Shown: positions 6,049 to 27,969 of the stretch, piece after piece | Layout of the letters: every line of letters begins with the position of its first letter | Numbering within the stretch: position 1 is the first letter of the stretch | Assembly: GCA_016721115.1 (NCBI GenBank) | Contig: JADKIW010000001.1 | Coordinates: forward strand, 3,506,200-3,570,199 | DNA: 64,000 bases | Source of the DNA: Candidatus Defluviilinea proxima | Lineage (GTDB): Bacteria; Chloroflexota; Anaerolineae; Anaerolineales; Villigracilaceae | Direction: 5' to 3' | Program-made: the position numbers and the translations under genes | Notes under the pieces: generated by a model | Told to the model about the DNA's origin: nothing | What the model saw: only the letters and a program-made list of their open reading frames with translations | Database searches by the model: none

Positions 6049-6465
6049 CTATATTGTGAACAGACGTAATGAACCATCTTCTTTTTGCTCAATGCGTAGT
6101 TTCTGTAAGGAAGAAACAGCGGGTCCTCTCAAAGCTTTGCCGGTCATATCGAATCGTGAGCCATGGCATGGACATTCAAAGCCGAAGTTGCTGGGTTCAG
6201 TGGTGCACCCAAGATGCGTGCATGTGAGACTGATCGCTTGAAGGCCGTTGTCGTCATGGATGACCACGGCTGGAATATAAGCAAGGACAGTACGGCTATT
6301 ATAGGGGAAATCAGACACCTTTCCAATTTCGAATTCGGTTTGTGATGGCTTATCGAATTGATAACTCAGAAATCGGATCAAACCTCCGATGCCCAGTGCG
6401 CCTGCCACTGCGAGCAATGAGTTGGTGGAGAGTTTGAGAAAATCGCGGCGGGATGTTTGTTTCAT
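6049..6465 (-). CDS. Rieske 2Fe-2S subunit of a cytochrome bc-type complex, with a Tat signal
   Basis: The start was moved to the internal Met (MKQTSRRDFLK, a twin-arginine motif). Cluster-binding boxes are CTHLGC and CPCHGS. ATGA overlap with the upstream gene at 6462-6465. Confidence 0.85.
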   Translation of the reverse strand: MKQTSRRDFLKLSTNSLLAVAGALGIGGLIRFLSYQFDKPSQTEFEIGKVSDFPYNSRTVLAYIPAVVIHDDNGLQAISLTCTHLGCTTEPSNFGFECPCHGSRFDMTGKALRGPAVSSLQKLRIEQKEDGSLRLFTI

Positions 6466-8249
6466 GGGGAACCTGTTGGAAAAGATGCAAGGATGGTGAG
6501 TGCGGTGATGGTGAGCGCCAGAACGATGATGATGACTTGTGAAACGCGGTTGCCTCGTGGGAACCATTTGCCAAGCTCATGGTCGCCAGCCTCTCGGAGC
6601 ACATAAGGGATGAGCGACATCAAGATCAATGTCAGCACCGGCACGGCGACACCCCAAAGGAAAGGGTCGCCATATTTGAGAAGCTCTTGTACCCACAGGA
6701 AGAACCATGGTGCGCGGGCATCGTGAACTTCGGTTGCGTATGTCATGGGGCGTGCAATAGGCGCAGGGAAGATGATCGATAACAGAATCAGAATAACGCT
6801 TGAAATGAGCATGATGCGCACTTCGCGTCGGACAAGTTCGAAGCGTGAAATGCGGATGCTATCTTCTCGTTGTATTGGAGGCGGCACAGCGATCCCGCCA
6901 TCGCGGCGTACGCGGAAGATGTGCCACACCACGAGAAAGATCAACGCGAGCATGAGCACAAAGATATGCCAAGTGTAAAAGCGCTCAAGGGTTGATAAGC
7001 CGGGTTGCCCGCCACCAATGACGAGTTGATACAACGCTCCGCCGATCCATGGAACGGTCTTGAGCAGGTTTGTACCCACGGTCAATGCCCAGCGGATGCC
7101 CTCGTCCCAGCGCAGGACGTAGCCGGTGAAATCCAATAACAAGATCAATACTAACATTCCCATGCCGATCAAATAATTGAACCGACGATGGCGGGCGTAT
7201 GCCCCAGTCAACACAACGCGTAAAAGATGGACCGATGCCACGATCACGAGCGCCTGTGCTGACCAGTAATGCAAGTTGCGGATCAATGCTCCGAATGGGA
7301 CGAGTGATGTGATCGTCTCAACAGAAACTGCGGCATGTTCCGGTACAGGGATGTAATAGAACATCTCCAGGATACCGGTCACAAGAAGGATCAAACATAA
7401 GAAGACGGCCATTCCACCTGCGCCAAGGGTGTAGCGAAAGCGTGCTTGCAGAGCAGGGATGGTCGGAGCGTGCAAGTGATGGAAGAAGTTCGGTCTCTCG
7501 TGTGTAGGCTTGGGATCTGTTGCATCCACATTCTTTTTTTGTAGGATGCTTTTTCTGATATCTTGTGCCAGCATGCCGATTGCTGCAAGCCCAAGGATCC
7601 CAGCGAACACGAACAAAGCCGGGCGGTCGTTAATTGGCTGTGGCACGGCGTATTGGGTCATGATCGCCGATGCATTAGTATCGTTGAGTATAAAATCATC
7701 AGGCAATGTGCCGTGCATATCAAGAATGTATGCAGTGGCCTGCCATGCTTGTTCGTCGGTCAGTTGACCGGGGTCCCACCACGGCATGCTGGCAAGAACG
7801 TAATCATGTAGCTCTTGTGCGTTTTTGAAACGTGCCAAACTGCCCGGCCCCGCGACCGATGGAATGATCTTGTCTCTTGGAATTGCAAACCCCTGCGGTG
7901 GGACGTGTGATCCGTGACAACCGGACTTCCAGCAGTTGCGGTCTTCGCCGAAAGCCTCTCTCCACTCGTCGGTCAACCCCTGACCGTGGTCACCATGACA
8001 CGCCATGCACACGCCCCAATATTTGAGCGAGCCAGCCTCTAATTGATTTGGCGTTTCTGATGTAACGTTTGGCTTGTCCAGGCGCTTGGGGTCAAAGGTT
8101 GGTGTGGGTTGTAAGGTGGGTGCGGCAGTGAATTGTAGATTATGTGACGCCTCTACTGTGGATGATGAAAGCAAGGTTGCTGTTATTGCTAGAACGATAA
8201 CAGATACAGCCAACAAAGTACGGACGATAGAAATGCGATGCTCAGACAT
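6462..8249 (-). CDS. Cytochrome c - cytochrome b/b6 - subunit IV-like fusion (bc complex)
   Basis: 595 aa. N-terminal anchor, then CMACH (CXXCH, 7995-8009) and CWKSGCH (CX4CH, 7914-7934). Cytochrome b helices follow (...LHYWSAQALVIVASVHLLRV..., ...FYTWHIFVLM...) and extra C-terminal TM helices. Confidence 0.85.
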   Translation of the reverse strand: MSEHRISIVRTLLAVSVIVLAITATLLSSSTVEASHNLQFTAAPTLQPTPTFDPKRLDKPNVTSETPNQLEAGSLKYWGVCMACHGDHGQGLTDEWREAFGEDRNCWKSGCHGSHVPPQGFAIPRDKIIPSVAGPGSLARFKNAQELHDYVLASMPWWDPGQLTDEQAWQATAYILDMHGTLPDDFILNDTNASAIMTQYAVPQPINDRPALFVFAGILGLAAIGMLAQDIRKSILQKKNVDATDPKPTHERPNFFHHLHAPTIPALQARFRYTLGAGGMAVFLCLILLVTGILEMFYYIPVPEHAAVSVETITSLVPFGALIRNLHYWSAQALVIVASVHLLRVVLTGAYARHRRFNYLIGMGMLVLILLLDFTGYVLRWDEGIRWALTVGTNLLKTVPWIGGALYQLVIGGGQPGLSTLERFYTWHIFVLMLALIFLVVWHIFRVRRDGGIAVPPPIQREDSIRISRFELVRREVRIMLISSVILILLSIIFPAPIARPMTYATEVHDARAPWFFLWVQELLKYGDPFLWGVAVPVLTLILMSLIPYVLREAGDHELGKWFPRGNRVSQVIIIVLALTITALTILASFPTGSP

Positions 8250-8264
8250 TAGGCTACGTGTATC

Positions 8265-8603
8265 TTATAAGGTTATGACTTTATCAGCTTTTGTTTGGGC
8301 TTCGATGATATCGCCCATGCCGCCTACGATGCCAACTTTTACTTTTTCAGTGATGTCATAGTAGTTCAAGCAAGTAGAGCAGACGATCAGTCGCACGCCC
8401 TTTTGCTCAAGATTGCGCAACTGCTCGATCACAGGTGAACCTTCGCAGACAAGCCTTACACCCAACGTGTAAAAGCATAACGCGGCAGGCAGGCTGTCGT
8501 TTTGTAGAAGCAATTCAAAATACTTTGCCATCAATGTGTGTTGTAGCTTTTCGTCTGCACTCCCCATGCCGTTGTTAGTGATCAAGATAACAGTGTTTTT
8601 CAT
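8265..8603 (-). CDS. DsrE-fold protein resembling the C-terminal domain of YedF (sulfur/selenium trafficking)
   Basis: 112 aa, VILITNNGMGSADEKL...GVRLIVCSTCLNYYD...GIVGGMGDIIE. This matches my memory of the DsrE/YedF-C pattern. There is no TusA/SirA domain. Confidence 0.6.
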   Translation of the reverse strand: MKNTVILITNNGMGSADEKLQHTLMAKYFELLLQNDSLPAALCFYTLGVRLVCEGSPVIEQLRNLEQKGVRLIVCSTCLNYYDITEKVKVGIVGGMGDIIEAQTKADKVITL

Positions 8604-9672: not shown

Positions 9673-9810
9673 ACTTGCATTATATCTTTAGGGTCTATGT
9701 GCGGTCATGTGACGAAAATCAGGTTATTGTATGAATTGTAGGAAGGGCGTTTGTTAGCGTCTTGCAGATGCGCCTGCCCATCAATTGTGCTAGAATCGAC
9801 GGAACTTAAT

Positions 9811-12800
9811 ATGCTTAAAGACCGCCTGATCGCATTCTTGAAGATACTTCCTGAAGAGACCCGCATGGTCTCTTTAATGGCTGTGTTGTTCTTGTGCTTG
9901 CAGGCTGGGCAGGGGTTTGGTGAGAATGCGGCATTTGCGTTGTTCCTCTCCAGCGTGAAAGTGGATTACCTGCCGTATATGTACATGGGGCTTGGGGGAG
10001 TGGTGTTCCTTGCCTCGATCTTCTTTTCAGCCAGTTTAAGCCGTTTTCAAAACTCCAGCGTTGTCGTGAACTTTTTAGCTGGGGCTATTTTGTTGTTCTC
10101 GCTGGAATGGATCTTTATTGTTTTCGCTGGCAATGCAGTTTCCTATCCTGTACTTTGGCTGACCACGTATGGTTCGGGTGTTGTATTTGGCACATTGTTA
10201 TGGACCGTAGCAGGTGAAGTGTGCGATGCGCGTCAGGCAAAACGACTTTTCCCATTGTTCACAAGCATGGGTATTTTGGGAAGCGTGTTGGGGAATTCTC
10301 TGACAGGTCTTGTCGCGAAGGCGGCTGGCACAACCAGTCTCATCATTTTCTACGTTTTATTATTGGGAATTGGTTTTGTGGTTGTACGGCGGGTGACGAA
10401 AGAATATTTCAAGACTGAGCCAGATGCCAATATCCGTTTTAGCCTGATAGATGATATTCGCGCTGGGTATCAATTTGTGCGAGGCTCGCAACTGTTTCGT
10501 TTGATCGCGCTGTCGTCCATCCTCTATTCCATTCTTTTTTTCACCGTGGACTTTCCCTTCAGTGAGCGGATCTCCATTCAATTTGCGAACGATTCTGCCG
10601 GGTTGGCGGGTTTCAAAGGCTTGTTCACGAGTTTAGTCACCGCTGTGACGTTTTTGGTCTCGTTGTTTTTGGCCAATCGTTTGTACACCAAACTGGGCAT
10701 TGTCAACAGCGTTTTGATCATGCCGATCACGTATGTTGTGACGTTCATTGTGTTCTTTGTCAGTTTTAATTTCTGGGGTGCTGTTGGCGCACGTTTCGGT
10801 CAGTTGGTGATTTTGGGCGGACTTGGCGGCACAGCGTGGAATGCTTTGTTCAATGTAGTGCCCTCTGAACGGCGCGGACAAGTACTGTCTTTTAATAACG
10901 GTGTCCCAGCTCAAATCGGCGTTGTACTTTCTGGCCTCTTAATCATCCTCAGTCGACGGGCTCTGGAGACACAGGATATCCTCCTGTTGGGTCTGACGAT
11001 CGCGATCGTTACGGTGCAAGTCACACGTAAGATGCGCCCCGCCTACGGGGAAGCGTTGTTAAGCGCTTTGCGTGCGGGGCGTGTGGAAGTATTCAGTGAA
11101 GAGGCTGATGATTTCGCTGGGTATCAAAACGACCCGATGGCCCTGGAAGTGACTCGTGATGCGCTTAACGACCCGCGCCCTCTTACGCGCCGACTGGCCG
11201 TGGAGATGTTGGCTCGCATGGGTGGCAAGACTGCCGCGCATGATATTGTCGAGCACTTGAACGATGAGGATGCTTCTGTCCGTGCGGCGGCTGTGGGTGC
11301 CTTGGTTGATTTGGATGCGAAGGATTCTTTCAAACATGTCATCATGGGATTGGACGACGAGAGTGATGAAGTACGTGAACAGACTCTCGCGGCTCTTCCC
11401 AAGCTGGAAGTTGCCTCAACACCCGAACTGATTCGTACCCTTGAGCGTTTGCTCGAAAACCCCAACCTCAAGATCGCTTCGCATGCCGCGATCGTGTTGC
11501 TATATCTTGGTGAAACATCCAGAGCCCTTGCGTTTGTTGCAAAGACTTTCAAAGACAAGGATCCTATTCATCGCATCACTCCGTTTTCCTCGTATCGCGT
11601 GATTGCTTCCATGGTGAATACTGTTATTCCTTTTGATAAGGGATTGGTACGCGCAGCCCTTCATGACCCTGCTCCTGTAGTTCGCCGCGAGGCCGCGAGG
11701 ATTGTTTCCTTTTTGATGGATGAGTCCATTGTCGATGATGTAATTACTTTGCTCGGTGACCCAGATACGATGGTGAAGAGAAATGCGTCAGAATCGCTGA
11801 AGCAGAATTGGGATATATCGAGAGGCGTCTTAATTCGTATGTTGCAAGAGGCCGACGAGTCCATTATTGCGCCTGTCATGGATTCCATCCCTACTGGCGA
11901 CGCGGGAATATTGGATGCGCTCTTGACTCGTATTCACCGTGAAGTAGCATGGATCCAGTATTTGCGCGCGTTAGTGGAGCCGCTCCCGCTTAAGGGGCGA
12001 ATGACAAAACTGCTGGTCTATATTTTGCGGTATCGCATTTTGTTGCGTGAAGAACGATTGGTAAAAGCTGTAGGTTTGTTTGGCGATCAACGTGCCATGA
12101 ACCTGGTGCGTGCCGCCTTGGTGGAAGGTGATGCTTCTGCAAGAGCCGCTGCTTTGGAAGCTCTGGAAACATTGGGCGATAAGCGTGTCACTGCAGAGGT
12201 GTTGCCGATATTGGAGAGTGACTCCAGTGATATGTTAGCTCCATTTACGCTTACAGACGCGATGAAAGAATTGTTGAAAGATCAGGACCCTGAACTGCGG
12301 TCGCTGGCTATGTTTGTGATCGCAGAACTTGCGTTGGAAGAGTTTGTTCCGAAACTACGGGAACTTTCTGTAAGTGACGATAAATTAACTGTAAGCATGG
12401 CGCGTGACGCCCTTTCGCGCATGGGAGGTACTTCCATTATGAAGACATCCAAAAATATAAAGACCTTGCGAACATTGACCACGCTGGACCGCATCCTGTT
12501 TTTCCGTGAGGTGCCTATGTTCTCGCGTCTCACGCCAGATGACCTTGAGCGTATCGCAGAGATTGCTGAAGAACAGTTATTTCTGGAAGGTTCTTTCCTG
12601 TGTCGTGAAGGGGAACGAGGCGATACATTGTTCATCATTACTGATGGTATGGTGGATGTGGTGAAGACCTCTGGGAATGTTGAAACTGTTTTAGCTACAC
12701 AAAGCGTAGGCAGTTATGTAGGGGAAATGGCCGTGTTAGAATCGGCGCCTCGTTCGGCCACGTTACGAGCGCGCAGTAATGTGCGCGCACTGGTAATTAA

Positions 12801-12915
12801 TGGAGATGCGTTCAACACCATCCTTTTGGATCGCCCGGAAGTGGCCGTCTCTGTTTTACAACACATGTCCCACCGTGTGCGCGAGTTGAATCAACGCGTC
12901 GGTGTGTCGGCTTGA
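9811..12915 (+). CDS. TLC/MFS-type transporter fused to HEAT repeats and a C-terminal cyclic-nucleotide-binding domain
   Basis: About 12 TM helices at the N-terminus. The central part has repeated ...DEDASVRAAAVGAL.. HEAT units. The C-terminal cNMP fold contains GEMAVLESAPRSATLRA. The ATG at 9811 is preferred over the TTG at 9751. Confidence 0.7.
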   Translation: MLKDRLIAFLKILPEETRMVSLMAVLFLCLQAGQGFGENAAFALFLSSVKVDYLPYMYMGLGGVVFLASIFFSASLSRFQNSSVVVNFLAGAILLFSLEWIFIVFAGNAVSYPVLWLTTYGSGVVFGTLLWTVAGEVCDARQAKRLFPLFTSMGILGSVLGNSLTGLVAKAAGTTSLIIFYVLLLGIGFVVVRRVTKEYFKTEPDANIRFSLIDDIRAGYQFVRGSQLFRLIALSSILYSILFFTVDFPFSERISIQFANDSAGLAGFKGLFTSLVTAVTFLVSLFLANRLYTKLGIVNSVLIMPITYVVTFIVFFVSFNFWGAVGARFGQLVILGGLGGTAWNALFNVVPSERRGQVLSFNNGVPAQIGVVLSGLLIILSRRALETQDILLLGLTIAIVTVQVTRKMRPAYGEALLSALRAGRVEVFSEEADDFAGYQNDPMALEVTRDALNDPRPLTRRLAVEMLARMGGKTAAHDIVEHLNDEDASVRAAAVGALVDLDAKDSFKHVIMGLDDESDEVREQTLAALPKLEVASTPELIRTLERLLENPNLKIASHAAIVLLYLGETSRALAFVAKTFKDKDPIHRITPFSSYRVIASMVNTVIPFDKGLVRAALHDPAPVVRREAARIVSFLMDESIVDDVITLLGDPDTMVKRNASESLKQNWDISRGVLIRMLQEADESIIAPVMDSIPTGDAGILDALLTRIHREVAWIQYLRALVEPLPLKGRMTKLLVYILRYRILLREERLVKAVGLFGDQRAMNLVRAALVEGDASARAAALEALETLGDKRVTAEVLPILESDSSDMLAPFTLTDAMKELLKDQDPELRSLAMFVIAELALEEFVPKLRELSVSDDKLTVSMARDALSRMGGTSIMKTSKNIKTLRTLTTLDRILFFREVPMFSRLTPDDLERIAEIAEEQLFLEGSFLCREGERGDTLFIITDGMVDVVKTSGNVETVLATQSVGSYVGEMAVLESAPRSATLRARSNVRALVINGDAFNTILLDRPEVAVSVLQHMSHRVRELNQRVGVSA

Positions 12916-13666: not shown

Positions 13667-13683
13667 CGAAGAAGCTGTAGAAC

Positions 13684-13724
13684 AAAAAGGACCTCGCAGA
13701 ATGAACTGCGAGGTCCTTTTTGTT
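13684..13724. terminator. Bidirectional rho-independent terminator
   Basis: Stem GGACCTCGCAG (13689-13699) pairs with CTGCGAGGTCC (13706-13716). It is flanked by an A-tract and a T-tract and lies between convergent genes. Confidence 0.8.
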
Positions 13725-13741
13725 TATTATTGTTGAGTTTG

Positions 13742-15052
13742 TTAACCACAACCTCCGCCAGATTTGTCACGCTTTAGTTGAAGTTTGATCTTGGCTTCGA
13801 ATTCCAGTTTTTCATATTCGATTGGACTCGGATCACAGGATTCGTAGCGGTCGCCCAAGGCGGCAGGGAAGATATAGGCCAATTGATCGGGAGCAGGTTT
13901 CGGGTTGGGTTGAACCGCCTGGAGCGTCTTGTCTTCTTTACCGAAGAAGGCGATCCAGTTGTTGACTCCACCTTCAAGAATGTAAACGTTCGGGACTGTG
14001 GAAGCGACAAGAGTCTTCCATGTTTTGACGGCGGCGGTCTCGTCGTTGCTCATCAGGATGAAAACGGAATTTGCAGGTGGCTCACTGAGTAATAAAGGAA
14101 TGACTTCCTCGATGCGTTCGGTGGGAATGTTGACAGCGCCTTCGATGTGGTACAAGTTGTAATCAGCCTCAGAGCGCACATCCAGATATATTAGGTTCAT
14201 CGATTGGTTGTACTTTGCCTTGAACGCTTCGGCAGGCGAAACGAAAACCAAGCGATTGGACAACATTTCGTCTGCAGTGTAGATAACGGTGTTGACAATG
14301 GGGTCAGCATTGAGTTGCGGGATGGTCTCCGTTCGGGTAAAGGTGAGCTTGTTATATTTTTGTTCAAGCGATGGTGAGCCGATGAAAACGACTGCGAGGG
14401 CGAGGACGACCAGTGCGCCAGCGCCTACAATGCGAAGTTTGGGCTCTTTGCTCATATCTTTTTTACCGATGATGCGTTCGAGTTGTTCGGAGCCCCAGAA
14501 CATGAAGAGTGCCATCAATACGACAAGTAGGACTACAACACCGATCGGGAGATGGAAGACTTGGTCAAGTGTGACACGTCCGTAGTAACCTGCATTGTTG
14601 TACCATTGGGTGAAGTATTGCTCGGTCTCACCGAAGAGGAAGGCGCCAACGAAGCCGCCAGCCATGAAGAACATGCCGTCTATCTTGCCAGTGGACGCGG
14701 ATGCGAGCGAAGTCGTGGGGCAGAAGCCGCCGATGATGAAGCCTACGCCCATGATGAGCCCGCCCACAATGCCAGATGCAAGATACGTTGGATTGACCCA
14801 GACTTGACTGAAGTTGAGAATGCCAAGCCCGACTGCGCCGAAGAGCAATACCATCGCAGTGACAATAGCGGTAAACATGACCTTGAGCACGGTAAGTTCG
14901 GTGAAGTAGAACTGTGCGGCGAGTTTGCGGGAGTCACCGAAGCCAGACATTTCGAGAGTGAAGCCGAAAGCAAAACCGATAACGCCGAAGAGCACGTACG
15001 TCCACGGGTTTGCGGCGCTTACAGCGATAAATTCAGGAAGAGGAAAGTTCAT
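13742..15052 (-). CDS. YeeE/YedE-family sulfur-compound transporter half fused to a rhodanese-like domain
   Basis: The N-terminal membrane part carries GGFCPTTSLASAS. The C-terminal part, YLDVRSEADYNLYHIEGAVNIP, is a rhodanese fold. The active-site position reads MSNDETA (no Cys). The protein ends in KSGGGCG. Confidence 0.8.
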   Translation of the reverse strand: MNFPLPEFIAVSAANPWTYVLFGVIGFAFGFTLEMSGFGDSRKLAAQFYFTELTVLKVMFTAIVTAMVLLFGAVGLGILNFSQVWVNPTYLASGIVGGLIMGVGFIIGGFCPTTSLASASTGKIDGMFFMAGGFVGAFLFGETEQYFTQWYNNAGYYGRVTLDQVFHLPIGVVVLLVVLMALFMFWGSEQLERIIGKKDMSKEPKLRIVGAGALVVLALAVVFIGSPSLEQKYNKLTFTRTETIPQLNADPIVNTVIYTADEMLSNRLVFVSPAEAFKAKYNQSMNLIYLDVRSEADYNLYHIEGAVNIPTERIEEVIPLLLSEPPANSVFILMSNDETAAVKTWKTLVASTVPNVYILEGGVNNWIAFFGKEDKTLQAVQPNPKPAPDQLAYIFPAALGDRYESCDPSPIEYEKLEFEAKIKLQLKRDKSGGGCG

Positions 15053-15061
15053 AGGATACTC

Positions 15062-15613
15062 CTAGTTCCATAACTTTCTTACAAAATATGCCAGTCCATA
15101 TGCGCCGCCAAATATGGCGAACATGACTGCCCACGAGCCAGCGGAAAGAGTTGCTCCACCTGAAAGTGCCTGACCGGATGTGCATCCACGTGCCATCCGC
15201 GCTCCGTAGAGGAAAAGTACTCCGCCGAGGAATGCCATGAGCCAGCGTGTGCGATCTGAGATGTTCGGCCCTTTGGTCGTCATGAACTTGAGACGTCCAT
15301 TGAACAAGCCCGAGGAGAAACCGCCAAGTAATGCGCCGAAGAATACAGGCACGATCCAATCGTCCATTGGGTTTTTATCGCCGCCCGCCATTTTTAGTAA
15401 ATATGGATTGTTGTCCACGTGGGAGGGCGAGATGGCATCCACAAGGGCGGCATCAATGCGGCTGGTTGCGCCCGAGGAGCCGAGACCATTACCTGTGAGG
15501 AAAAAGGCAAGGAAGAGTACAATGCCAAGCACCACGCCTCCAAAATAGGGATGCACGTATGCTCTTTCGGGTCGGTTGAAAATACTTTTCTTGGTAGCAG
15601 GAGCAGTTGTCAT
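15062..15613 (-). CDS. YeeE/YedE-family transporter half
   Basis: 183 aa with the conserved ARGCTSGQALSG motif. Its start overlaps the stop of the upstream cytochrome gene (TAATG, 15611-15615). Confidence 0.8.
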   Translation of the reverse strand: MTTAPATKKSIFNRPERAYVHPYFGGVVLGIVLFLAFFLTGNGLGSSGATSRIDAALVDAISPSHVDNNPYLLKMAGGDKNPMDDWIVPVFFGALLGGFSSGLFNGRLKFMTTKGPNISDRTRWLMAFLGGVLFLYGARMARGCTSGQALSGGATLSAGSWAVMFAIFGGAYGLAYFVRKLWN

Positions 15614-18354
15614 TATTTTTTCTCCTTCTTTTCTTTTTTATCTTCTTTCACTTCCACGTGTTCATGTTTTTCGACTTCTTCATACCCCGTCACCATTGCC
15701 CTCATCGCCTCAAGCGGAGTTGCGCCAGTGGTGGTCATGTACACATGTACGAGGATGAAGGTTGCGAAGGTCCATGCGACAAGCGAGTGGAACGGCGCGA
15801 GGAATGGAAGTCCGCCCAAAATGTTCGGGTACTTTTGCACAAGCCACATCAATGCGCCCGTGATGATCTGCAATGGCAACAACACATTCAAGATGCCGAA
15901 GTATGTTGCCTTTTGGATCGGGTTCATACGGCTATCGGGTCGCTTTTCAAAAGGATGCCCTTCACCCTTGAAGATTCCGCTGATGTAATACTTCGCCTGC
16001 AAAATCGCATCGTCGAAAAATCCGTAAGGACGCGGGATGAATTCCCGAATACGGTCAGTGGCTAGGTGATAGAACAACGAGAGGATCGCGTTCACGACCA
16101 ATATCACCGCCAGCACGTTGTGCACTGTTACTACTCCACGGAATGAGAATGCACCGAAGATATCAGGTCTGTGAATGATGAGTCCTGTGAACAACAAAAT
16201 GACGATGGATGCGGTCTGGAGCCAATGCCAGAACCTGCGATAGGGCTCGTACATATAAACCCGCTCGGTTCTTACTGGACCGTGAGCCTGCTTCCTGGAC
16301 GAGAAATATCTCAGCGTCCCATGCCCGACCACACCTAAGAGCGAACCGACGAACATCAGCGCGCCGAGCCAGTCGATCCAGTTGACACGGCTCGAACCAA
16401 AGACATACATTTTGTCATTGGCAGGGACGGGGTTGTAATAAACAGCGCCATCTGCGCCTGTGACAATTTCGCCAGATGCATTGACGTTGTTGTTCGCATC
16501 AAAGACAGGCAACGTGCCGTTCGGTGCATAGCCTGACAGCATGATGGGTTGCGAAACACGAGACTCGTCATTGTGACAGGCTTTGCAGTCGTTGACGGCA
16601 TTCTCGCCACGAGTCACGTTGTGGTTGATGCTATAGGGTTGAGACAACCCTTCGATGCGGGGATTATTGAGGCCGAGTGCAGTGAGTTTGGCCTTGACGG
16701 CTTCTTCTTTTGCAGAAGAGTCGATCTTGAGTTCAGTGTCGCTGAGTGAACCATCTTTGTTCGCGTCGAAAGTAGACATCACGTCAGCGGCGTATTTGCT
16801 ATCTTCGAAGTACGCAGATTCAAGGTCCATGAGGCGAACGGGGCGTTTATTCCCAGTTGCATCATCGTAGACCCAGTAATATGTAGTGATGAGATTGTAC
16901 GGGGCGAGCAGTTGGTCGCCGTCAATATTATTGCGGTTGAGCAGAACGGGTTTGTATCCTGTTACAAGCGAAGTGACGGAGTTGGGATCACCTTCGATGC
17001 CACGACATGTTTTGACAGGCTCGTTATTCGTTGTAAGAACTGTCCAATCATAGGATTGAATAGCAGGAGCATACATCTGCGGAATGTGGCAGGTTTCGCA
17101 GGCGACAGCGTTCATGTGTGTGTCGATGTACGGAAGCCAATCCGCGTGTCCCTTTTTGGCATCGTGGCAGGATTCACAGCGGCGCATCGTGCCTTTAAGT
17201 TCTGGCGCAATGGTAAATTGTGCGCTTTGTCCACGTGCGAAGTTGTGATCAGGTTGTTTGAGATACTCGCCGATATCGAGCTTTCGTGGATCGTAGAGCA
17301 GATGGCTGGGCTGGGACTTTTGTGAAACATCAGAATACACAGGATTGTTGATGGAGAAGTGACAATCGGTGCATTGCAGTTGACGTTCGGCATGAATATC
17401 CCATGAGCGATTAGCTTCCGCTTTGTTGCTCAGGTTGATGCCTGATTCAGAAATTTTTTGTGATGCAACAACTTGCCCTGTTGTGGCCGTCTGTGGGTTA
17501 TTCAAATCACAGGCGGTGATGGTCAGCGGCTCGATTGCGTCTGTGTGAACTTCGCCATGACATGCGGCGCAATTGGCGTTGGTGGGATCTTGGATCTTGA
17601 TGACGTCAGCTTTGAGTTCACTGTTTTCGTTGAATGATTCAGGGTTCCAGGTCCATGTGTCTGTGGAGCCATCATGTTCAGCAATGCCAAGACCGAGAAG
17701 AGTCGCTGTGTTGGCGTTACCGAACCATCCGCTTCGAATGAAACCTGCCCTTGCGGCAGTATTGGGGCTTTCGATGTGACATAGGAAACAGTTCATTTCC
17801 ATCGTGCCAGAAGCGTTCCAATCCCAGGCTTCGACATTTCCATTTTTATTCAGGATGGCTGTCTCGTAATTCTTCGATGTACTTGAAATAGAAGTGAGAG
17901 CTTGTCCTTCTCGTGATGTTTCAGCAGGACCTCCGCCGACAACACGTGAGCCGTTCAACTTCAACCATTCCGCTGTGGACATGTCTAGGCGTTCGTCGCC
18001 TGTCTGTGAGAGATAGCGATAGGTGAGCGGGTCCCATTTGCCGAATGTGCCTGTGCTGGCGTTGAAGTCTTTGGTGTTTTTGTAGTCGCTCAGTCCGAGA
18101 TCGGAATGAAAAGCGTGTTGTTGAATGAACTTGGTGTCGTGACATTGTCCGCAGGTTTGCATGGTGGAAATAGATTTACCTGATGTCAGTACATTATCGC
18201 CATTGGAGTCAAGCAAGGCAAAGTCTGGGTGTAAGGGAGATGCTTGGGATGTTGAAGCAGGCTCAGGTTGGGCAAGAACCGTTCCAATCCCAAAGGCGGA
18301 TACTACGATGAGCAGTCCGATAACGATGAGTAGGTTGCGTTTTGAAATGTTCAT
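15613..18354 (-). CDS. Heptahaem c-type cytochrome domain fused to a b-type cytochrome membrane module (FdnI/PhsC/HydC-like)
   Basis: The start was trimmed to MNISKRNLLIVIGLLIV (signal or anchor). Seven CXXCH motifs are present: CGQCH, CFLCH, CAACH, CTDCH, CESCH, CETCH, CKACH. The C-terminus has about 5 TM helices with conserved His (FWHWLQ, VHNVL, FYHL, FHSL, LVHVY). The tail is KEDKKEKKEKK. Confidence 0.8.
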   Translation of the reverse strand: MNISKRNLLIVIGLLIVVSAFGIGTVLAQPEPASTSQASPLHPDFALLDSNGDNVLTSGKSISTMQTCGQCHDTKFIQQHAFHSDLGLSDYKNTKDFNASTGTFGKWDPLTYRYLSQTGDERLDMSTAEWLKLNGSRVVGGGPAETSREGQALTSISSTSKNYETAILNKNGNVEAWDWNASGTMEMNCFLCHIESPNTAARAGFIRSGWFGNANTATLLGLGIAEHDGSTDTWTWNPESFNENSELKADVIKIQDPTNANCAACHGEVHTDAIEPLTITACDLNNPQTATTGQVVASQKISESGINLSNKAEANRSWDIHAERQLQCTDCHFSINNPVYSDVSQKSQPSHLLYDPRKLDIGEYLKQPDHNFARGQSAQFTIAPELKGTMRRCESCHDAKKGHADWLPYIDTHMNAVACETCHIPQMYAPAIQSYDWTVLTTNNEPVKTCRGIEGDPNSVTSLVTGYKPVLLNRNNIDGDQLLAPYNLITTYYWVYDDATGNKRPVRLMDLESAYFEDSKYAADVMSTFDANKDGSLSDTELKIDSSAKEEAVKAKLTALGLNNPRIEGLSQPYSINHNVTRGENAVNDCKACHNDESRVSQPIMLSGYAPNGTLPVFDANNNVNASGEIVTGADGAVYYNPVPANDKMYVFGSSRVNWIDWLGALMFVGSLLGVVGHGTLRYFSSRKQAHGPVRTERVYMYEPYRRFWHWLQTASIVILLFTGLIIHRPDIFGAFSFRGVVTVHNVLAVILVVNAILSLFYHLATDRIREFIPRPYGFFDDAILQAKYYISGIFKGEGHPFEKRPDSRMNPIQKATYFGILNVLLPLQIITGALMWLVQKYPNILGGLPFLAPFHSLVAWTFATFILVHVYMTTTGATPLEAMRAMVTGYEEVEKHEHVEVKEDKKEKKEKK

Positions 18355-18364
18355 GTCCGTTTGC

Positions 18365-19813
18365 CTATTTCTTGTCAAATCGTCCGCCCCATTTGATGGG
18401 GTCACCAGGGTAGCCGAGAGCTGCCCAATCGAGCCGACTGTTCTCGCCGTGACAGGAGTCGCATTGCAGGGCATTTTCGGCGGGTTGCACCATGTGTGTA
18501 GTTGCCCAGTACATGTAGGTTTCAGTGAAGTCGTAATGACCACTGTATTCAAGGCCTGTGATCGGCGCGGCGATCTCGAAGGCGCTGTTCCAGTCGAAGG
18601 TTGTCCAGAAACCGCCCTTACCCGATGTAACAGGTTGAAGCAGGTAGTTATTTACTGTGTCATAGGGTTGCTTGGCGATGTGTAACTTGAAGGGAAATAT
18701 CTTTGCATTCTTGTCGTTGATGTCGCCAGCAGGTTTGTTGATGTACGTAACAGTATTGGGGTCGATCTTATCGCCAAGGATATAGCGGTATTCGTTGTTG
18801 CCGTTGAACCAAAGATACGTGGGTTTGAAATTCTTTTCGTAAGTAAATTCGCCTTTGATCTTCAGGTAAGTGAAATGATCGTCCTCTCGTCCTTCCTGAC
18901 CTGCTTGTGACCAGTCCCAGGTTGTTTTAGTGGGATCTTGAAGAGCCATGGCAGGGATGTGGCAAGTCTGACATGCAACAGAGTCAAGGTGTGTATTGAT
19001 GCGTTCATCCTCGTGTTTTTGATTCACGTGGCATTGCTGGCACGAAACTTGTTCCTTGGGGTCGATCGTGTAATTGTCGGCGATCATGCGCCCAAGAATT
19101 TGATGGTTCGTTGTGACGTGACAGTCAGTACATTGCATGTTGAAATCGCTACCCATGTGGACATCAAGGCTTTTATCAGGGAAGTAGAGACTCTCGTCGA
19201 GGTCGCCATGTTTGACGCCGTTCCCACCACCGCCATCGAAGTGACATTTTCCGCAGTTTTCACGTGTGGGTGCTCGCACACTCTTTGCGGCGGCAAGCAG
19301 GTCTACGCCATCGGCAGGGTTGCCGAAGAGACCTTTGCCGTATAAGCCAGTGTCGGCGTGGCAGGCGAGACAGTCCACGTTTTCGGGCTTGGATTGTTCT
19401 ACTTCCTTGCCTTCTTCCCATCCGTAGCCAGCATGACAGGACATGCATTTATTTTCATTCCCTTGTGAGCCGATGCAGAAGTTGTTGATCTGATTGATCT
19501 TGCCAATGGTCACGGGCACATCACGCCACGGAACGTTGAATTGTTTCGATTCCCATGTCCAGTGTGTGGTCTTCATCAGATCGGTTGCGGCATTTTCATG
19601 ACATTCGAGACAGGCTCGGGTCACATCCTGTCCTGTTTTGAAATCGCCTTTGACAATGTCGTGATGGTCCACATGGACGAGTTTGGTGGGCAGATAATCT
19701 TCAGGGTTAGTGGAAGGCTTATCGGTACGTGGGAGGAAGTAAACCACAGGGACAAGAATCACTAAAAGGATTCCGAGCAGTCCCAAGGTCCAGAACGGGA
19801 AGCGTTTCTTCAT
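18365..19813 (-). CDS. Membrane-anchored octahaem c-type cytochrome, tetrathionate-reductase (OTR) family-like
   Basis: Eight CXXCH motifs are present: CLECH, CMSCH, CLACH, CGKCH, CTDCH, CQQCH, CQTCH, CDSCH. THWTWES follows haem 1. The last motif is near the C-terminus. An N-terminal TM helix is present. Confidence 0.7.
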   Translation of the reverse strand: MKKRFPFWTLGLLGILLVILVPVVYFLPRTDKPSTNPEDYLPTKLVHVDHHDIVKGDFKTGQDVTRACLECHENAATDLMKTTHWTWESKQFNVPWRDVPVTIGKINQINNFCIGSQGNENKCMSCHAGYGWEEGKEVEQSKPENVDCLACHADTGLYGKGLFGNPADGVDLLAAAKSVRAPTRENCGKCHFDGGGGNGVKHGDLDESLYFPDKSLDVHMGSDFNMQCTDCHVTTNHQILGRMIADNYTIDPKEQVSCQQCHVNQKHEDERINTHLDSVACQTCHIPAMALQDPTKTTWDWSQAGQEGREDDHFTYLKIKGEFTYEKNFKPTYLWFNGNNEYRYILGDKIDPNTVTYINKPAGDINDKNAKIFPFKLHIAKQPYDTVNNYLLQPVTSGKGGFWTTFDWNSAFEIAAPITGLEYSGHYDFTETYMYWATTHMVQPAENALQCDSCHGENSRLDWAALGYPGDPIKWGGRFDKK

Positions 19814-19821
19814 ACATTCTC

Positions 19822-20157
19822 CTATGAAAGTTCATTAACGAGGTTTGCACGTTCGGTCATACGATCACGCATTGCAGATCGAAGAAGGTCCATCGCCTGA
19901 ATAATGCGCGAATCGGCCAGGTGATACGTGATCACTGTTCCTTGTCGTTCGGTGTACACAAGTCCACGTTCGCGTAAAACTTTGAGGTGTCTGGATGTAG
20001 TGGGTTGGGGGATGCCTAATTCGTTCGTAAGCTCTGTTACATTAAGAGAGCGCTCGTTCAATGCATATAAAATAAGAATGCGCGTCGGGTCAGAAAGTGC
20101 CGCGCAAAAATCAGCTTCGAGTTGGATGATTTCCTGTTTAAGGGTCTGATTTACCAT
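19822..20157 (-). CDS. ArsR/SmtB-family transcriptional regulator
   Basis: Contains LSDPTRILILYALNERSLNVTELTNELGIPQPTTSRHLKVLRERGLV. It is the first gene of the cytochrome operon, 8 nt before the next start. Confidence 0.85.
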   Translation of the reverse strand: MVNQTLKQEIIQLEADFCAALSDPTRILILYALNERSLNVTELTNELGIPQPTTSRHLKVLRERGLVYTERQGTVITYHLADSRIIQAMDLLRSAMRDRMTERANLVNELS

Positions 20158-20209
20158 CTTTTTCTCCTAATATACGGATAAACGAATATACGCTTGTTTG
20201 CATAATACT

Positions 20210-20269
20210 CCTGTGACATTTTTCACAATAGTGAAGGTTGTCACTATAAAGCTGGCATAATGTCACAGG
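20210..20269. promoter_or_regulatory. Candidate operator(s) in the arsR / xre-cupin divergent region
   Basis: 10-bp inverted repeat CCTGTGACAT (20210-20219) / ATGTCACAGG (20260-20269). It encloses the palindrome TTCACAATAGTGAA (20222-20235). A possible TTCACA-N17-TATAAA promoter for the plus-strand gene is also present. Confidence 0.35.
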
Positions 20270-20309: not shown

Positions 20310-20945
20310 ATGACTCTCTATCAACATGATGCACTTTCGGTAAACGTGGGTGAGCGAGTACGAGAACTTCGTACAGCCCGTAATATGACTTTGCAAGTAC
20401 TTGCTACGAAAAGCGGGCTTTCCGTTCATACCTTGTCCATGATCGAGTTGGGGAAGACCTCACCATCTGTCAGTGCCTTATATAAAATTGCTGATGTGTT
20501 GAGTGTTTCCATCACGACATTTTTCAGTACCGATACAGATCAAAAACAAGTCATCTTTCTCAAATCGGATGAACGGACTCGTATGCCGTTTCCTCGTGGT
20601 TTGATAGAAGGTTTGGGCGGTGAAAAATTTTCAGGCAAGGTTGAGCCTTTTCTGCTCACACTTGAAAACAGCGCCAATAGTGGCTCAAAAATGATCTCGC
20701 ATATGGGACATGAATTTGTTTTTTGTTTGCGTGGTCAAATCGAATATCAAGTGGAGCATCACATCTACGAACTGGCCCCAGGTGATAGCCTCCTGTTTGC
20801 GGCTACCCTCAAACACCGTTGGAAGAATTCAGGCAAGCGCGTGGCTACTGCTTTGATCGTCGTTTCATGTTTTGGTGATACTAACGAGCTACAACATTTG
20901 CACCATGGGGATACTGGACAGGAATCAAAAAGAGCGTCTCAATAG
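20310..20945 (+). CDS. XRE-family HTH regulator with a C-terminal cupin domain
   Basis: N-terminal HTH (VGERVRELRTARNMTLQVLATKSGLSVHTLSMIELGK). A cupin beta-barrel motif lies in the C-terminal half. Confidence 0.8.
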   Translation: MTLYQHDALSVNVGERVRELRTARNMTLQVLATKSGLSVHTLSMIELGKTSPSVSALYKIADVLSVSITTFFSTDTDQKQVIFLKSDERTRMPFPRGLIEGLGGEKFSGKVEPFLLTLENSANSGSKMISHMGHEFVFCLRGQIEYQVEHHIYELAPGDSLLFAATLKHRWKNSGKRVATALIVVSCFGDTNELQHLHHGDTGQESKRASQ

Positions 20946-24521: not shown

Positions 24522-24869
24522 TTAAGTGTACATGCCCCAATCCAAGGCGGACGGGTCTTCCATCATGGCGAAGTCCCACACATCCATGCCCATTTCGATT
24601 GTGACAGGCATGTTCAACCCTTCGGTTGCTTTGGCTTTCGTCATTTCGATCATGGCGGGTCCGTATGGGCAGAAGGGGGTAGTGAGGATCATCTTTAAGT
24701 GGGCAATGCCGTTGTCGATGGAAATATCTCTTACCAATCCCAATTGGATGATGTGCATGCCGATTTCGGGGTCGACTACTTCGGAGAGTTTCTCGCGTGC
24801 AGGTTTTACCATTTCGGGGTGTGTGTCGTGGATGGTCCACTTGATTTCGTTGATTGTTTCTTCAGTCAT
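24522..24869 (-). CDS. DUF59/SufT-like Fe-S assembly protein
   Basis: 115 aa containing EVVDPEIGMHIIQLGLV...TTPFCPYG. Confidence 0.75.
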   Translation of the reverse strand: MTEETINEIKWTIHDTHPEMVKPAREKLSEVVDPEIGMHIIQLGLVRDISIDNGIAHLKMILTTPFCPYGPAMIEMTKAKATEGLNMPVTIEMGMDVWDFAMMEDPSALDWGMYT

Positions 24870-24916
24870 GGTTCCTCGTTTGGAATTTTGGAGTTAGGAG
24901 CTTGCTCCTGTAATTC

Positions 24917-24930
24917 GCCAATATATTGGC
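24917..24930. promoter_or_regulatory. Perfect 14-bp palindrome GCCAATATATTGGC upstream of the DUF59 gene
   Basis: Read directly from the sequence. It is nested within further inverted repeats: AATTTTGG 24884-24891 / CCAAAATT 24936-24943, and AGGAGCTTGCTCCT 24896-24909. Confidence 0.35.
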
Positions 24931-24942
24931 TGATTCCAAAAT

Positions 24943-25566
24943 TTAGTTTTTTATTGCAACAGCCTGCACTACATAGGTACAGTGTGCGGCGCCGCTTAAT
25001 ATACATTGGACTTTGCTGACGGGCAGGGCCAGCATTTTAGAGATCAGGGTTTGATCAACCGTGCAGACTTCAGGATGTGTCACACCGATCTGGTAGTAGG
25101 GGCAGGAAATCTCATGGATCTGATAGTCGTTGCCCTTCTTTTCCCATTCTACGGTGAAGCCTTCGTGTGCCAGCATGGCTTTGACAAAATCCAGCCGCTC
25201 TTCCATGCTGAGGCCTTTCATTTGTTCAGAGTAATCGTTTGCCATTTCTTCGGCGACCTGGCTGAACAATTTTGCCACAGCCGGCGCAGGTAAGGAGTCT
25301 TTCATTTGCGCCAATAGACGAGTGGTCAGGCGCAGATATTTCGTGGGAAATTTCTCCATTCCGTCTTCGGTTAACGAATAGACGAGGCGAGGGCGTCCTA
25401 CGCCGTGACGTTCCTCTTCCGCTCCAATCAGGCCTTCCTTTTCGAGGTTGGATAAATGATGTCGGACGGAAATTGGATTGATCCCAACGCCTTCTGCGAT
25501 CTCGTTGATCGTGATCTTTGGCTTGCGAAGCAGGGTTTGAAGAATCTTATCTTTCGTGCTTTTCAT
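24943..25566 (-). CDS. SufR-like transcriptional regulator (winged HTH plus C-terminal four-Cys region)
   Basis: Divergent from sufC. HTH is INEIAEGVGINPISVRHHLSNLEKEGLI. C-terminal Cys residues lie in ISCPYY..EVCTV..VQCILSGAAHCTY. The ATG at 25566 is preferred over the TTG at 25602. Confidence 0.6.
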   Translation of the reverse strand: MKSTKDKILQTLLRKPKITINEIAEGVGINPISVRHHLSNLEKEGLIGAEEERHGVGRPRLVYSLTEDGMEKFPTKYLRLTTRLLAQMKDSLPAPAVAKLFSQVAEEMANDYSEQMKGLSMEERLDFVKAMLAHEGFTVEWEKKGNDYQIHEISCPYYQIGVTHPEVCTVDQTLISKMLALPVSKVQCILSGAAHCTYVVQAVAIKN

Positions 25567-25597
25567 GATTGGGAGTATACCTGTCTGCTTTAGTATT

Positions 25598-25655
25598 GTC
25601 AATATACTAGAAAAATATCATAAATATTGACTTTTCGATATGACCCTGCTATAAT
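25598..25655 (+). promoter_or_regulatory. suf operon sigma70-type promoter overlapped by an inverted repeat
   Basis: TTGACT (25627-25632), a 17-nt spacer, then TATAAT (25650-25655). Inverted repeat GTCAATAT (25598-25605) / ATATTGAC (25624-25631) overlaps the -35 element. Confidence 0.65.
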
Positions 25656-25711
25656 GCCGCACGATGATAAAAACGCCAGTAATGGCTTAATAATGTTAGG
25701 AGCAAATACGA

Positions 25712-26488
25712 ATGTCGCAACTTGAAATCAAGAACCTGCATGTAAACATTGAGGGAAAAGAGATTCTCAAAGGTCTCGATCTCACAATTGAACAGGGCAA
25801 AGTCCACGCTATTATGGGGCCCAATGGAACTGGTAAATCCACTTTGGCTTATACGTTGATGGGACACCCATCTTATACAGTGACCGAAGGTGAAGTTATA
25901 TTTAAAGGACAAAACGTCCTCGAGCTTGAGCCTGACGAACGTTCCCGACTTGGGATCTTTTTAGCATTCCAATATCCTGTCGCTATTCCGGGTGTGACGG
26001 TTGCCAACTTCTTGCGTACCGCGCTCAATGCCCGTCGACGTGCTGAAAACCCTGAAGACAAGGGTATGCCAATCCCTGAATTTCGCAAGTTATTAAAAGA
26101 GAAGATGGCGATGCTCAAAATGGACCAGACCTTTGCGGGACGTTACCTCAACGATGGTTTCTCTGGTGGTGAAAAGAAACGTGCTGAAATTTTGCAAATG
26201 GCAACTCTTCAGCCACAGATCGCTATTTTAGACGAAACCGATTCAGGCTTGGACATTGATGCGCTTCGCATCGTTTCTGAGGGTGTCAATGCTTTAATGA
26301 GCAAGGATATGGGTGTGCTGGTCATCACGCACTATCAACGTTTGTTGAACTATATCAAGGCTGATTACGTTCATATTATGTACGGTGGCAGAATCGTTGA
26401 ATCGGGTGGACCTGACCTAGCGTTGCACCTTGAAGAAAAAGGTTACGACTGGGTTCGCGAGAAGTACGACGAGGAAGTCACAGCGTAG
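25712..26488 (+). CDS. sufC: Fe-S cluster assembly ATPase SufC
   Basis: Contains [24 protein letters not shown]...[10 protein letters not shown] and the [12 protein letters not shown] signature. Confidence 0.95.
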
Positions 26489-26559
26489 GTTCGTTTTATT
26501 AAACGGTAGCAGGTGACGGCTTGGAAAGAAGCGGTTCGTCATCCAAAAAGGTAAATGAT

Positions 26560-27968: not shown

Positions 27969-27969
27969 C

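Follow-up and report, generated by a model that had tools for sequence, protein, structure and literature searches.

A five-gene operon of Anaerolineales joins an octahaem tetrathionate reductase-family cytochrome to a split YeeE pair and a putative cysteine-arm domain

Organization of the operon

The DNA analyzed here is a stretch of 64,000 nucleotides (nt), hereafter the window, from Candidatus Defluviilinea proxima (Chloroflexota; Anaerolineales; assembly GCA_016721115.1, contig JADKIW010000001.1, positions 3,506,200 to 3,570,199 of the forward strand). Reading of its open reading frames and their translations revealed five minus-strand genes that span positions 20157 to 13742 of the window and encode an ArsR-type repressor, a cytochrome of the octahaem tetrathionate reductase (OTR) family, a heptahaem/cytochrome b fusion, and two halves of a YeeE/YedE-type membrane protein, the second of which carries a rhodanese-like domain. 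Domains were called with Pfam gathering scores and with curated NCBIfam/TIGRFAM equivalog or subfamily cutoffs. The genes and the terminator that follows them are listed below, with protein lengths in amino acids (aa).

19822-20157, minus strand: arsR, 111 aa; ArsR/SmtB-family repressor with a match to the HTH_5/ArsR domain
18365-19813, minus strand: octahaem gene, 482 aa; eight CXXCH motifs; membrane-anchored OTR-family cytochrome, putative catalytic subunit
15613-18354, minus strand: b/c fusion gene, 913 aa from the ATG at 18354; seven CXXCH motifs; heptahaem c domain plus dihaem cytochrome b
15062-15613, minus strand: YeeE/YedE C-terminal-half gene, 183 aa; PmpA/YedE1E2-type; PF04143
13742-15052, minus strand: YeeE N-half plus rhodanese gene, 436 aa; PF04143 and PF00581
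13680-13725, no strand assigned: bidirectional intrinsic terminator with a 20-bp stem, between the last YeeE gene (yeeE2) and a convergent cyclophilin gene

Down the operon, the intergenic spacing is 8, 10, -1, and 9 nt, the overlap being a TAATG stop/start sequence at 15611-15615 that joins the b/c fusion gene to the YeeE C-half gene, and AGGAG-type ribosome-binding sites precede four of the five genes. A preliminary description of this DNA had given the same gaps and overlap, which proved exact on re-reading, and its domain assignments all agree with our profile searches (TIGR04315, PF01292, PF04143, and PF00581). The terminator at 13680-13725 closes the operon, and no hairpin like it was found within the five-gene unit. 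Tight spacing is by itself ordinary for operons; it is the conserved order of the genes that exceeds chance.

Conservation across genomes

A scan of a genome collection seeded with the OTR-family protein returned 80 species-representative loci, with OTR identities of 62-91%. We found the same gene order in every locus long enough to be judged (69 with arsR and 66 with the last gene, the remainder being truncated contigs), and this survey bears out the earlier proposal of one conserved functional unit. Most of the loci come from Anaerolineales and other Chloroflexota; the others include metagenome-assembled genomes (MAGs) of Burkholderiales, Hydrogenophilaceae, and Rhodanobacteraceae, with taxonomy labels as deposited. 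These proteobacterial MAGs keep the four-gene core and lack arsR, and their cores suggest horizontal transfer between phyla. In the Pseudomonadota MAG loci L036, L044, L049, L051, and L056, the four-gene core has 68-77% OTR identity to the Anaerolineales version and sits on high-GC contigs of up to 1.3 Mb with unrelated flanks; the flanks of L036 and L051 held no informative conserved neighbours.

An independent metagenome scan, seeded with the stand-alone form of the Cys-arm domain described below, recovered the module with OTR identities down to 48%. OTR was present in 15/15 loci with at least 6.2 kb of upstream sequence, the heptahaem domain in 28/28, and both YeeE halves in 48/48; many of these loci encode the YeeE N-half and the anchored arm domain in two neighbouring genes. 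Across three phyla (Chloroflexota, Pseudomonadota, and Bacteroidota), OTR, the YeeE pair, and the Cys-arm are co-conserved down to 41-48% OTR identity.

The octahaem protein is a member of the OTR family

The octahaem protein scores 563.4 bits against TIGR04315 (cutoff 375) and is a true member of the OTR family, for which tetrathionate reductase activity is here a prediction. Its sole sequence match in the Protein Data Bank (PDB) is Shewanella OTR, 1SP3 (52% identity, E 3.8e-139). The protein is therefore not a HAO, ONR, NrfA, or MccA, and the OTR-type assignment made from the sequence holds. All eight CXXCH motifs are invariant in 77 homologues. Likewise invariant is K105, which aligns with Lys56 of 1SP3, the haem-2 ligand and first lysine of GKKNSINNFC (1SP3 residue numbers were counted from the chain sequence). 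Eight residues past this ligand (GKINQINNFC), a non-haem cysteine, C113, is invariant in the 77 OTR homologues and is also present in Shewanella OTR as C64; among the papers that cite OTR, we found no role for it. The N-terminus is a membrane anchor that looks uncleaved.

The structure of OTR was reportedly solved in 2004, and the in vivo role of the enzyme is said to have been unclear since then. Shewanella OTR reduces free tetrathionate. Its gene is presumably flanked by a cytochrome b gene, SO_4143, as a regulon list also indicates. Reduction of nitrite and hydroxylamine in vitro is reported for Shewanella OTR in work that PMC4484225 cites. In sediment microcosms, otr was induced by tetrathionate (PMC8528874), and in lucinid symbionts a divergent soxY adjoins otr (PMC11237559). 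The protein described here shares with Shewanella oneidensis OTR (SO_4144) the whole catalytic domain (to which the 52% identity applies), the eight CXXCH motifs, the haem-2 lysine, and the nearby non-haem cysteine. However, the Shewanella enzyme is a soluble protein that CymA supplies via STC (PMC4484225), whereas the present one is anchored at its N-terminus, and its operon also encodes a heptahaem/cytochrome b partner of its own, a split YeeE channel, and a Cys-arm domain.

A heptahaem/cytochrome b fusion as a putative link to the quinone pool

The 913-aa protein consists, in this order, of a signal peptide, a heptahaem domain, an extra transmembrane (TM) helix, and a PF01292 dihaem cytochrome b. 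Its seven CXXCH motifs are invariant in 34 sequences. PF01292 covers aa 702-890 with 80.8 bits (gathering score 30.1), and H710, H745, H856, and H870 are invariant in 32 sequences; they lie in TM1, in TM2, and, as a pair spaced 14 apart, in TM4, as expected for dihaem cytochromes of the PhsC/FdnI/HydC type. This domain match and histidine set corroborate the c-b fusion that had been read from the DNA. Among cytochrome b models, PhsC (NF011582) scored best with 138.7 bits, which is under its cutoff of 204, so that the protein is no PhsC equivalog; FdnI and HydC gave 41-66 bits. The heptahaem domain is a remote relative of OTR and MmcA (BLASTP 8e-11, hhalign 97.5%, partial TIGR04314 and TIGR04315 matches). 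From this architecture, the 913-aa protein is probably the link to the (mena)quinone pool.

A quinol-oxidising b domain fused to a multihaem c domain is already known from CbcL of Geobacter sulfurreducens, in which a periplasmic multihaem c domain and a quinone-interacting dihaem cytochrome b form one polypeptide (PMC9129911). The likeness is one of architecture only. CbcL has nine haems and PpcA-type shuttles as its partners, whereas the fusion described here has seven haems, a c domain related to OTR/MmcA, the domain order c then b, and a putatively catalytic OTR as its partner.

The YeeE pair resembles split sulfur importers

PF04143 was found in both YeeE genes, with 74.3 and 58.3 bits (gathering score 27). 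The first gene corresponds to the C-half of the profile (positions 162-309) and the second to the N-half (positions 11-194), and these complementary ranges confirm that YeeE is split into two halves. Each half contains one conserved cysteine, C144 in the GCTSG motif of the C-half (66/66 sequences) and C111 in the GGFCP motif of the N-half (60/60). In this, the pair is unlike the TsuA/YeeE thiosulfate transporters, which are single polypeptides of ~330 aa with nine TM helices and three conserved cysteines, and it scores far under their equivalogs (NF041049 and NF052577; 21-26 bits against cutoffs of 400-645). The YedE/FdhT selenium models (NF033796 and TIGR04112) gave 28 and 17 bits against a cutoff of 350. 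As single-sequence PDB queries, the halves matched no YeeE structure; a profile built from 24 diverse N-half homologues aligned to residues 5-116 of S. thermophila YeeE and reached 6LEO weakly (E 0.006).

The pair has the YedE1E2/PmpAB arrangement, in which a C-half and an N-half gene are adjacent and carry one conserved cysteine each, and by this analogy it is predicted to import sulfur. YedE1E2/PmpAB pairs of Cupriavidus, Sinorhizobium, and Serratia share with it the two adjacent half genes, the single essential or conserved cysteine in each, and an ArsR-family neighbour (PMC10812762, PMC11582611). The split, one-Cys YedE1E2 imports zero-valent sulfur through two essential cysteines, which the full-length form did not, and an ArsR gene adjoins it (PMC10812762); the PmpAB arrangement of split halves is described in PMC11582611, and full-length YeeE/TsuA imports thiosulfate (PMC11073785). 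The YedE1E2 data and the missed TsuA cutoffs speak against the import of thiosulfate that had been proposed for this locus. The N-half described here differs from the known pairs in that it adds two TM helices, a catalytically dead rhodanese domain that is predicted to be external, and a cysteine tail. Moreover, its fixed partner is a multihaem redox enzyme, in place of the persulfide dioxygenase to which the known pairs are tied.

A dead rhodanese domain that ends in an invariant cysteine tail

The gene for the 436-aa protein is divided as follows.

14375-15052, minus strand: YeeE/YedE N-half membrane part with two extra TM helices; PF04143 profile positions 11-194
13763-14374, minus strand: rhodanese-homology domain, predicted to be extracytoplasmic, with linker; PF00581; catalytic cysteine absent
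13745-13762, minus strand: C-terminal tail SGGGCG with Cys435; SoxY-like cysteine carrier arm by likeness of motif

The soluble part of the protein (aa 227-436) includes a PF00581 match at aa 280-368 (45.6 bits, gathering score 22.2) and matched rhodanese structures in a profile search, in which Sud (1QXN) was a weak match. Positions 334/335 of the catalytic loop (MSNDE here) are occupied by M, V, I, or L and by S or G in 60/60 homologues, and no cysteine occurs anywhere in the rhodanese domain of these 60, so that the catalytic cysteine of a sulfurtransferase is missing; an SNDE-type loop is also found in 22 distant stand-alone homologues of the domain. On the other hand, all 60 end in SGGGCG, and the cysteine of this tail is the sole invariant one of the domain and tail. 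The tail has the C-terminal GGCG(G) of the SoxY arm without the SoxY fold; in SoxY, a C-terminal GGCGG is the hallmark, and its cysteine carries sulfur intermediates (PMC6067878, PMC5336275).

A library-wide search with the aa 227-436 part alone returned 909 representatives of 50%-identity clusters at E <= 1e-3. The best 150 of the 909 include 106 with G[GS]CG or GGCGG at the end, about 28 fusions to a YeeE half, and about 49 stand-alone proteins of about 210 aa. No curated Pfam or NCBIfam model covers this family of anchor, dead rhodanese, and GGCG tail.

The stand-alone homologues begin with M-K-x-x-K, followed by one hydrophobic helix and then GQPT, which together make up a signal anchor, and in the fusion protein the loop ahead of the last TM helix is rich in K/R. 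Full-length YeeE presumably has an N-out/C-in layout, judging by structure 8J4C, for which YeeD was fused to its C-terminus. Taken together, these features would place the rhodanese domain on the outer side of the membrane, in the compartment of OTR, and we therefore predict that it is extracytoplasmic. The absence of the catalytic cysteine and this predicted location do not fit the earlier suggestion that the product of the reductase is handed to a rhodanese-like domain.

Regulators and candidate operators

Upstream of the operon lie two candidate operators and a divergent regulator gene.

20170-20190, minus strand: ArsR-type operator-like palindrome TATATTCG-N6-CGTATAT, directly upstream of the arsR ribosome-binding site
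20213-20244, no strand assigned: inverted repeat GTGACA..TCAC / GTGA..GTCAC, candidate operator in the divergent promoter region, with 14-nt arms that are 79% complementary
20310-20945, plus strand: divergent regulator with an XRE-type helix-turn-helix (HTH) and a cupin domain (Pfam HTH_3 and Cupin_2)

The ArsR protein belongs to the ArsR/SmtB subfamily (NF033788, 86.8 bits, cutoff 55) and falls under the equivalog cutoffs of BigR (51.9 against 155), TsoR (61.7 against 115), and CmtR (52.5 against 150); for TsoR, the top-scoring of these names, a literature search found nothing relevant. Its only cysteine, C18, lies in helix alpha-1 within a HAxIC / ADFC motif and is kept in 66/69 close homologues and, as HAxIC, in 10/12 distant loci. 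The persulfide sensors BigR and SqrR have a conserved cysteine pair in alpha-2 and alpha-5, which the single alpha-1 cysteine does not fit. In an alignment of 25 intergenic regions from different species, the columns ATAT.CG...CG.ATATA of the 20170-20190 palindrome are at least 80% conserved, and the TGACA/TGTCAC blocks around 20213-20244 are conserved as well.

The divergent XRE-cupin gene lies 150-280 nt upstream of arsR in 38 of the 61 loci with enough upstream sequence, and its product is likely a second regulator of the locus in Anaerolineales. At a distant locus (L124:1444-2343), the upstream regulator combines an ArsR HTH with a rhodanese domain that has a catalytic cysteine (CRGPFC) in a single fusion protein. 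Such fusion regulators in some lineages point to sulfane sulfur as the probable signal.

Variants of the module

In at least 13 loci, an MtrA-like decahaem cytochrome and/or an MtrB/PioB porin follows directly after the module (porin Pfam E 1e-157 in L134). The MtrAB-type sister lineage includes loci L134, L140, L146, L152, L154, L136, L088, and L144. The cytochrome b domain is absent from all five MtrAB-type loci that can be judged. In L134 (3814-11763), OTR is fused to the heptahaem domain, with 15 CXXCH motifs in one polypeptide, which indicates that OTR and the heptahaem domain work together. The electron terminal of the module thus appears, from these gene contents, to be interchangeable between the quinone pool and an outer-membrane conduit, and the MtrAB variant suggests a tie between the sulfur module and extracellular electron transfer.

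A minimal version of the module is found in a cultured member of the Bacteroidota, Fulvitalea axinellae DSM 100852, on plasmid pFA1 (NZ_AP025315.1, 312147-316110; L162:6875-10838). It consists of an OTR that bears a TM helix at its C-terminus, a stand-alone cytochrome b that is a homologue of the b domain in the window, and two YeeE halves of 170 and 399 aa, the longer of which carries a Cys-less rhodanese domain that ends in QGGCT. The arm homologue is too diverged for tblastn and was recognised from annotation and translation; a plasmid search with the Cys-arm domain gave no match at E 1e-5.

A model of arm-bound sulfur reduction and import

We tentatively prefer to read the locus as an operon under ArsR control whose products carry out redox chemistry on sulfur outside the cytoplasm and import the sulfur, with a logic like that of Sox but with parts other than those of Sox. 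Its elements, as read from the sequence, are an OTR on the outer side of the membrane; a heptahaem-b wire, the cytochrome b of which most resembles PhsC, a subunit of thiosulfate reductase; a Cys channel in two halves; a dead rhodanese with a Cys tail, predicted to be external; and a one-Cys ArsR with a conserved operator. In the mechanism that we propose, the Cys435 arm would bind a sulfur species covalently, as a persulfide or thiosulfonate, in the manner of the SoxY swinging arm or Wolinella Sud, and would present it to the Lys-ligated catalytic haem of OTR. Quinol electrons would pass through the b haems and the seven c haems to OTR, which would cleave an S-S compound such as tetrathionate, polythionate, or polysulfide. 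The sulfane sulfur would then be relayed from Cys435 to Cys111, from there to Cys144, and on into the cytoplasm, and the imported sulfur would also inactivate the ArsR repressor via Cys18. This mechanism is least secure in what the substrate is and in which direction the electrons flow.

Two known systems resemble it. In Wolinella succinogenes, Sud is a periplasmic, rhodanese-like polysulfide carrier that feeds a respiratory reductase, Psr. The likeness lies in an extracytoplasmic rhodanese-fold protein that holds, or here would hold, sulfur on a cysteine for a quinol-linked reductase. However, Sud is soluble and has its cysteine in the active-site loop, whereas here the loop cysteine is absent and the cysteine is on a C-terminal tail; and Psr is a molybdoenzyme, whereas the reductase here would be a multihaem cytochrome.

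The second is the Sox system, where SoxT importers signal to the ArsR-type SoxR and SoxYZ is thought to feed SoxT (PMC11582611). SoxT, SoxR, and SoxYZ serve by analogy as a precedent for an importer, an ArsR repressor, and a GGCGG carrier that act together (PMC11582611, PMC6067878). With SoxXA included, the shared logic comprises an extracytoplasmic c-type cytochrome enzyme, a GGCG(G) arm carrier, a YeeE-family importer, and an ArsR-type repressor (PMC6067878, PMC5336275, PMC11582611). However, only the YeeE and ArsR parts are homologous. SoxY is Ig-like, whereas the carrier proposed here has a rhodanese fold and is tethered to the transporter, and neither SoxB nor SoxCD is found here.

A bolder version of this proposal, which we put forward with less assurance still, is that the OTR of this clade is carrier-dependent. 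Its native substrate would be a sulfur adduct on the GGCG arm of the membrane-tethered dead rhodanese, which would then be handed to the YedE1E2-type channel. This would be a second, non-Sox invention of a swinging arm, pluggable into the quinone pool or MtrAB, and, if true, it would link the turnover of sulfur intermediates to extracellular electron transfer through the MtrAB version.

Several points weigh against these proposals. The proteins of this clade are known only as sequences, and the Shewanella enzyme needs no carrier to reduce free tetrathionate, nitrite, and hydroxylamine. An oxidative role with export of electrons would suit the MtrAB-linked variants no less well. The tail and domain showed no homology to SoxY in Pfam, NCBIfam, or a PDB profile search (E <= 1), so that the likeness is one of motif only and the arm would be an analogous one on a different fold. 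AlphaFold2 gave a mean predicted local-distance difference test score of 49 for the YeeE-rhodanese protein (32-sequence alignment) and 37 for the b/c fusion, from shallow alignments (members at least 73-82% identity) and for haem proteins that model badly without their cofactors; topology and arm reach were accordingly judged from the sequence. Finally, OTRs of Paracoccus and Photobacterium (~40% identity) occur with a cytochrome b gene and without YeeE. OTR with cytochrome b looks like the most widely distributed pairing, within which the YeeE and arm unit appears to mark a large sub-clade.

Alternative explanations

An oxidative direction is the alternative that survives best, and we consider it somewhat unlikely. 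OTR would charge the arm cysteine with sulfur from sulfide or thiosulfate, as SoxXA charges SoxY, electrons would flow to quinone or, via MtrAB, to extracellular acceptors, and the sulfane sulfur would be imported for oxidation or assimilation. The replacement of cytochrome b by an MtrA-like decahaem cytochrome and an MtrB/PioB porin in the loci described above fits this direction, since electron export is the easiest explanation of an outer-membrane conduit. Cytochromes b of the FdnI type are able to act as quinone reductases, the Sox analogy is itself oxidative (PMC5336275, PMC11582611), and the module is present in Burkholderiales and Hydrogenophilaceae MAGs. However, the tetrathionate/thiosulfate couple lies at +198 mV (PMC8528874), so that thiosulfate oxidation cannot reduce menaquinone and only the oxidation of sulfide or polysulfide would be workable in Chloroflexota. 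Moreover, OTR has been characterised as acting reductively, the cytochrome b matches the quinol oxidase PhsC best, and the operon has no SoxB- or SoxCD-like partner.

We regard as unlikely a reductive scheme along the lines of the preliminary description, in which OTR reduces free tetrathionate with quinol electrons, YeeE imports the thiosulfate, and the rhodanese domain is a conventional, cytoplasmic sulfurtransferase. Membership of the OTR family, the location of the genes in one operon, and thiosulfate import by full-length YeeE/TsuA (PMC11073785) are consistent with it. However, it has to contend with a rhodanese loop that lacks cysteine in 60/60 homologues, with the predicted extracytoplasmic location of that domain, and with TsuA scores of 21-26 bits against 400-645. 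In addition, zero-valent sulfur was imported by split YedE1E2 and not by the full-length form (PMC10812762), and the invariant SGGGCG tail would be left without a role.

A selenium version of the mechanism seems quite improbable to us. OTR would reduce selenite or Se-S species, the arm cysteine would trap reduced selenium as Cys-S-Se, and the YedE-like channel would bring it in, to be detoxified or used for selenophosphate synthesis. Selenium transport has been linked to the YedE family, the weak selen_YedE_FdhT matches are as good as those of TsuA, and selenocysteine-containing members occur both in TIGR04315 and in YeeE/YedE, the latter with a GUxSG motif that corresponds to GCTSG here (PMC13188914). 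Nearby in the window there are also genes for a YedF-C-like protein and an ExtP/ExtQ-like cytochrome b; however, neither is conserved beside the module, no selD, selA, or selB was linked to it in any inspected locus, and the scores fell far short of every selenium-family equivalog cutoff. Both the ArsR-rhodanese regulators and what is known of YedE1E2 point instead to sulfane sulfur.

Least probable is a nitrogen-oxide role, in which OTR would reduce or detoxify nitrite and hydroxylamine and the YeeE genes would be a passenger of separate function: the in vitro activities of Shewanella OTR, as cited in PMC4484225, and the origin of many host MAGs in wastewater and anammox systems would suit it, but OTR is strictly co-conserved with the YeeE pair and Cys-arm domain (41-48% OTR identity, three phyla), the operon is translationally packed, and its regulators are of sulfur type.

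Novelty and significance

Each part of the module has a precedent, namely OTR, the CbcL-type fusion, YedE1E2/PmpAB, ArsR, the SoxY arm, and Sud. The preliminary description had put the module forward as a candidate undescribed one. This holds for the combination as far as the searchable, open-access literature goes; the b/c fusion is known from CbcL, and OTR with cytochrome b is known without YeeE from Paracoccus and Photobacterium. In open-access full texts, we found no description of the obligatory combination of parts or of the family that joins an anchor, a dead rhodanese, and a GGCG tail.

A context that is kept across three phyla, always with a sulfur channel and a Cys-arm domain, argues that sulfur chemistry is the native job of this OTR clade and suggests that its substrate may be protein-bound. 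The long-unclear natural role of the OTR family thereby becomes testable, and the minimal version in the cultured Fulvitalea axinellae DSM 100852 makes genetics and biochemistry feasible. Through the exchange of cytochrome b for MtrAB, cryptic sulfur cycling may be connected to extracellular electron transfer in sediments. Anaerolineales such as Ca. Villigracilis, which host the module, abound in wastewater and groundwater systems.

Neighbouring genes in the window

Two genes near the operon were considered as members of the module and rejected, as neither is kept near it in other genomes. The first (8265-8603, minus strand) encodes a 112-aa DsrE-fold protein that fits the C-terminal half of YedF only (TIGR03527, 111.5 bits, cutoff 110), without the TusA-like N-domain; the YedF-C/DsrE-like gene noted earlier is thus real, but it does not belong to the module. 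The second (6462-8249, minus strand) encodes a 595-aa protein in which a c-type cytochrome domain is fused to cytochrome b6 and a subunit-IV-like part. In NCBIfam, it comes closest to ExtP and ExtQ, of a Geobacter selenite/tellurite reduction operon, both under cutoff (207 against 290 and 60 against 150).

A SUF cluster (24525-29307; sufC at 25700-26485 and a SufBD-type gene at 26901-29307), together with an Fe-S assembly protein, lies 5-9 kb off the module and is kept in 17-31 related loci. In Paracoccus ferrooxidans, otr directly follows sufB, sufC, sufD, and two genes for cysteine desulfurase on pFER4 (L161:1-8503). Sulfur derived from OTR may be connected with Fe-S assembly, or the arrangement may be mere synteny.

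Between the DsrE-like gene and the operon, the window encodes at 9751-12915 (plus strand) a 1054-aa protein of unusual architecture, with an MFS/TLC-like membrane transporter region, several HEAT repeats, and a C-terminal cyclic-nucleotide-binding domain.

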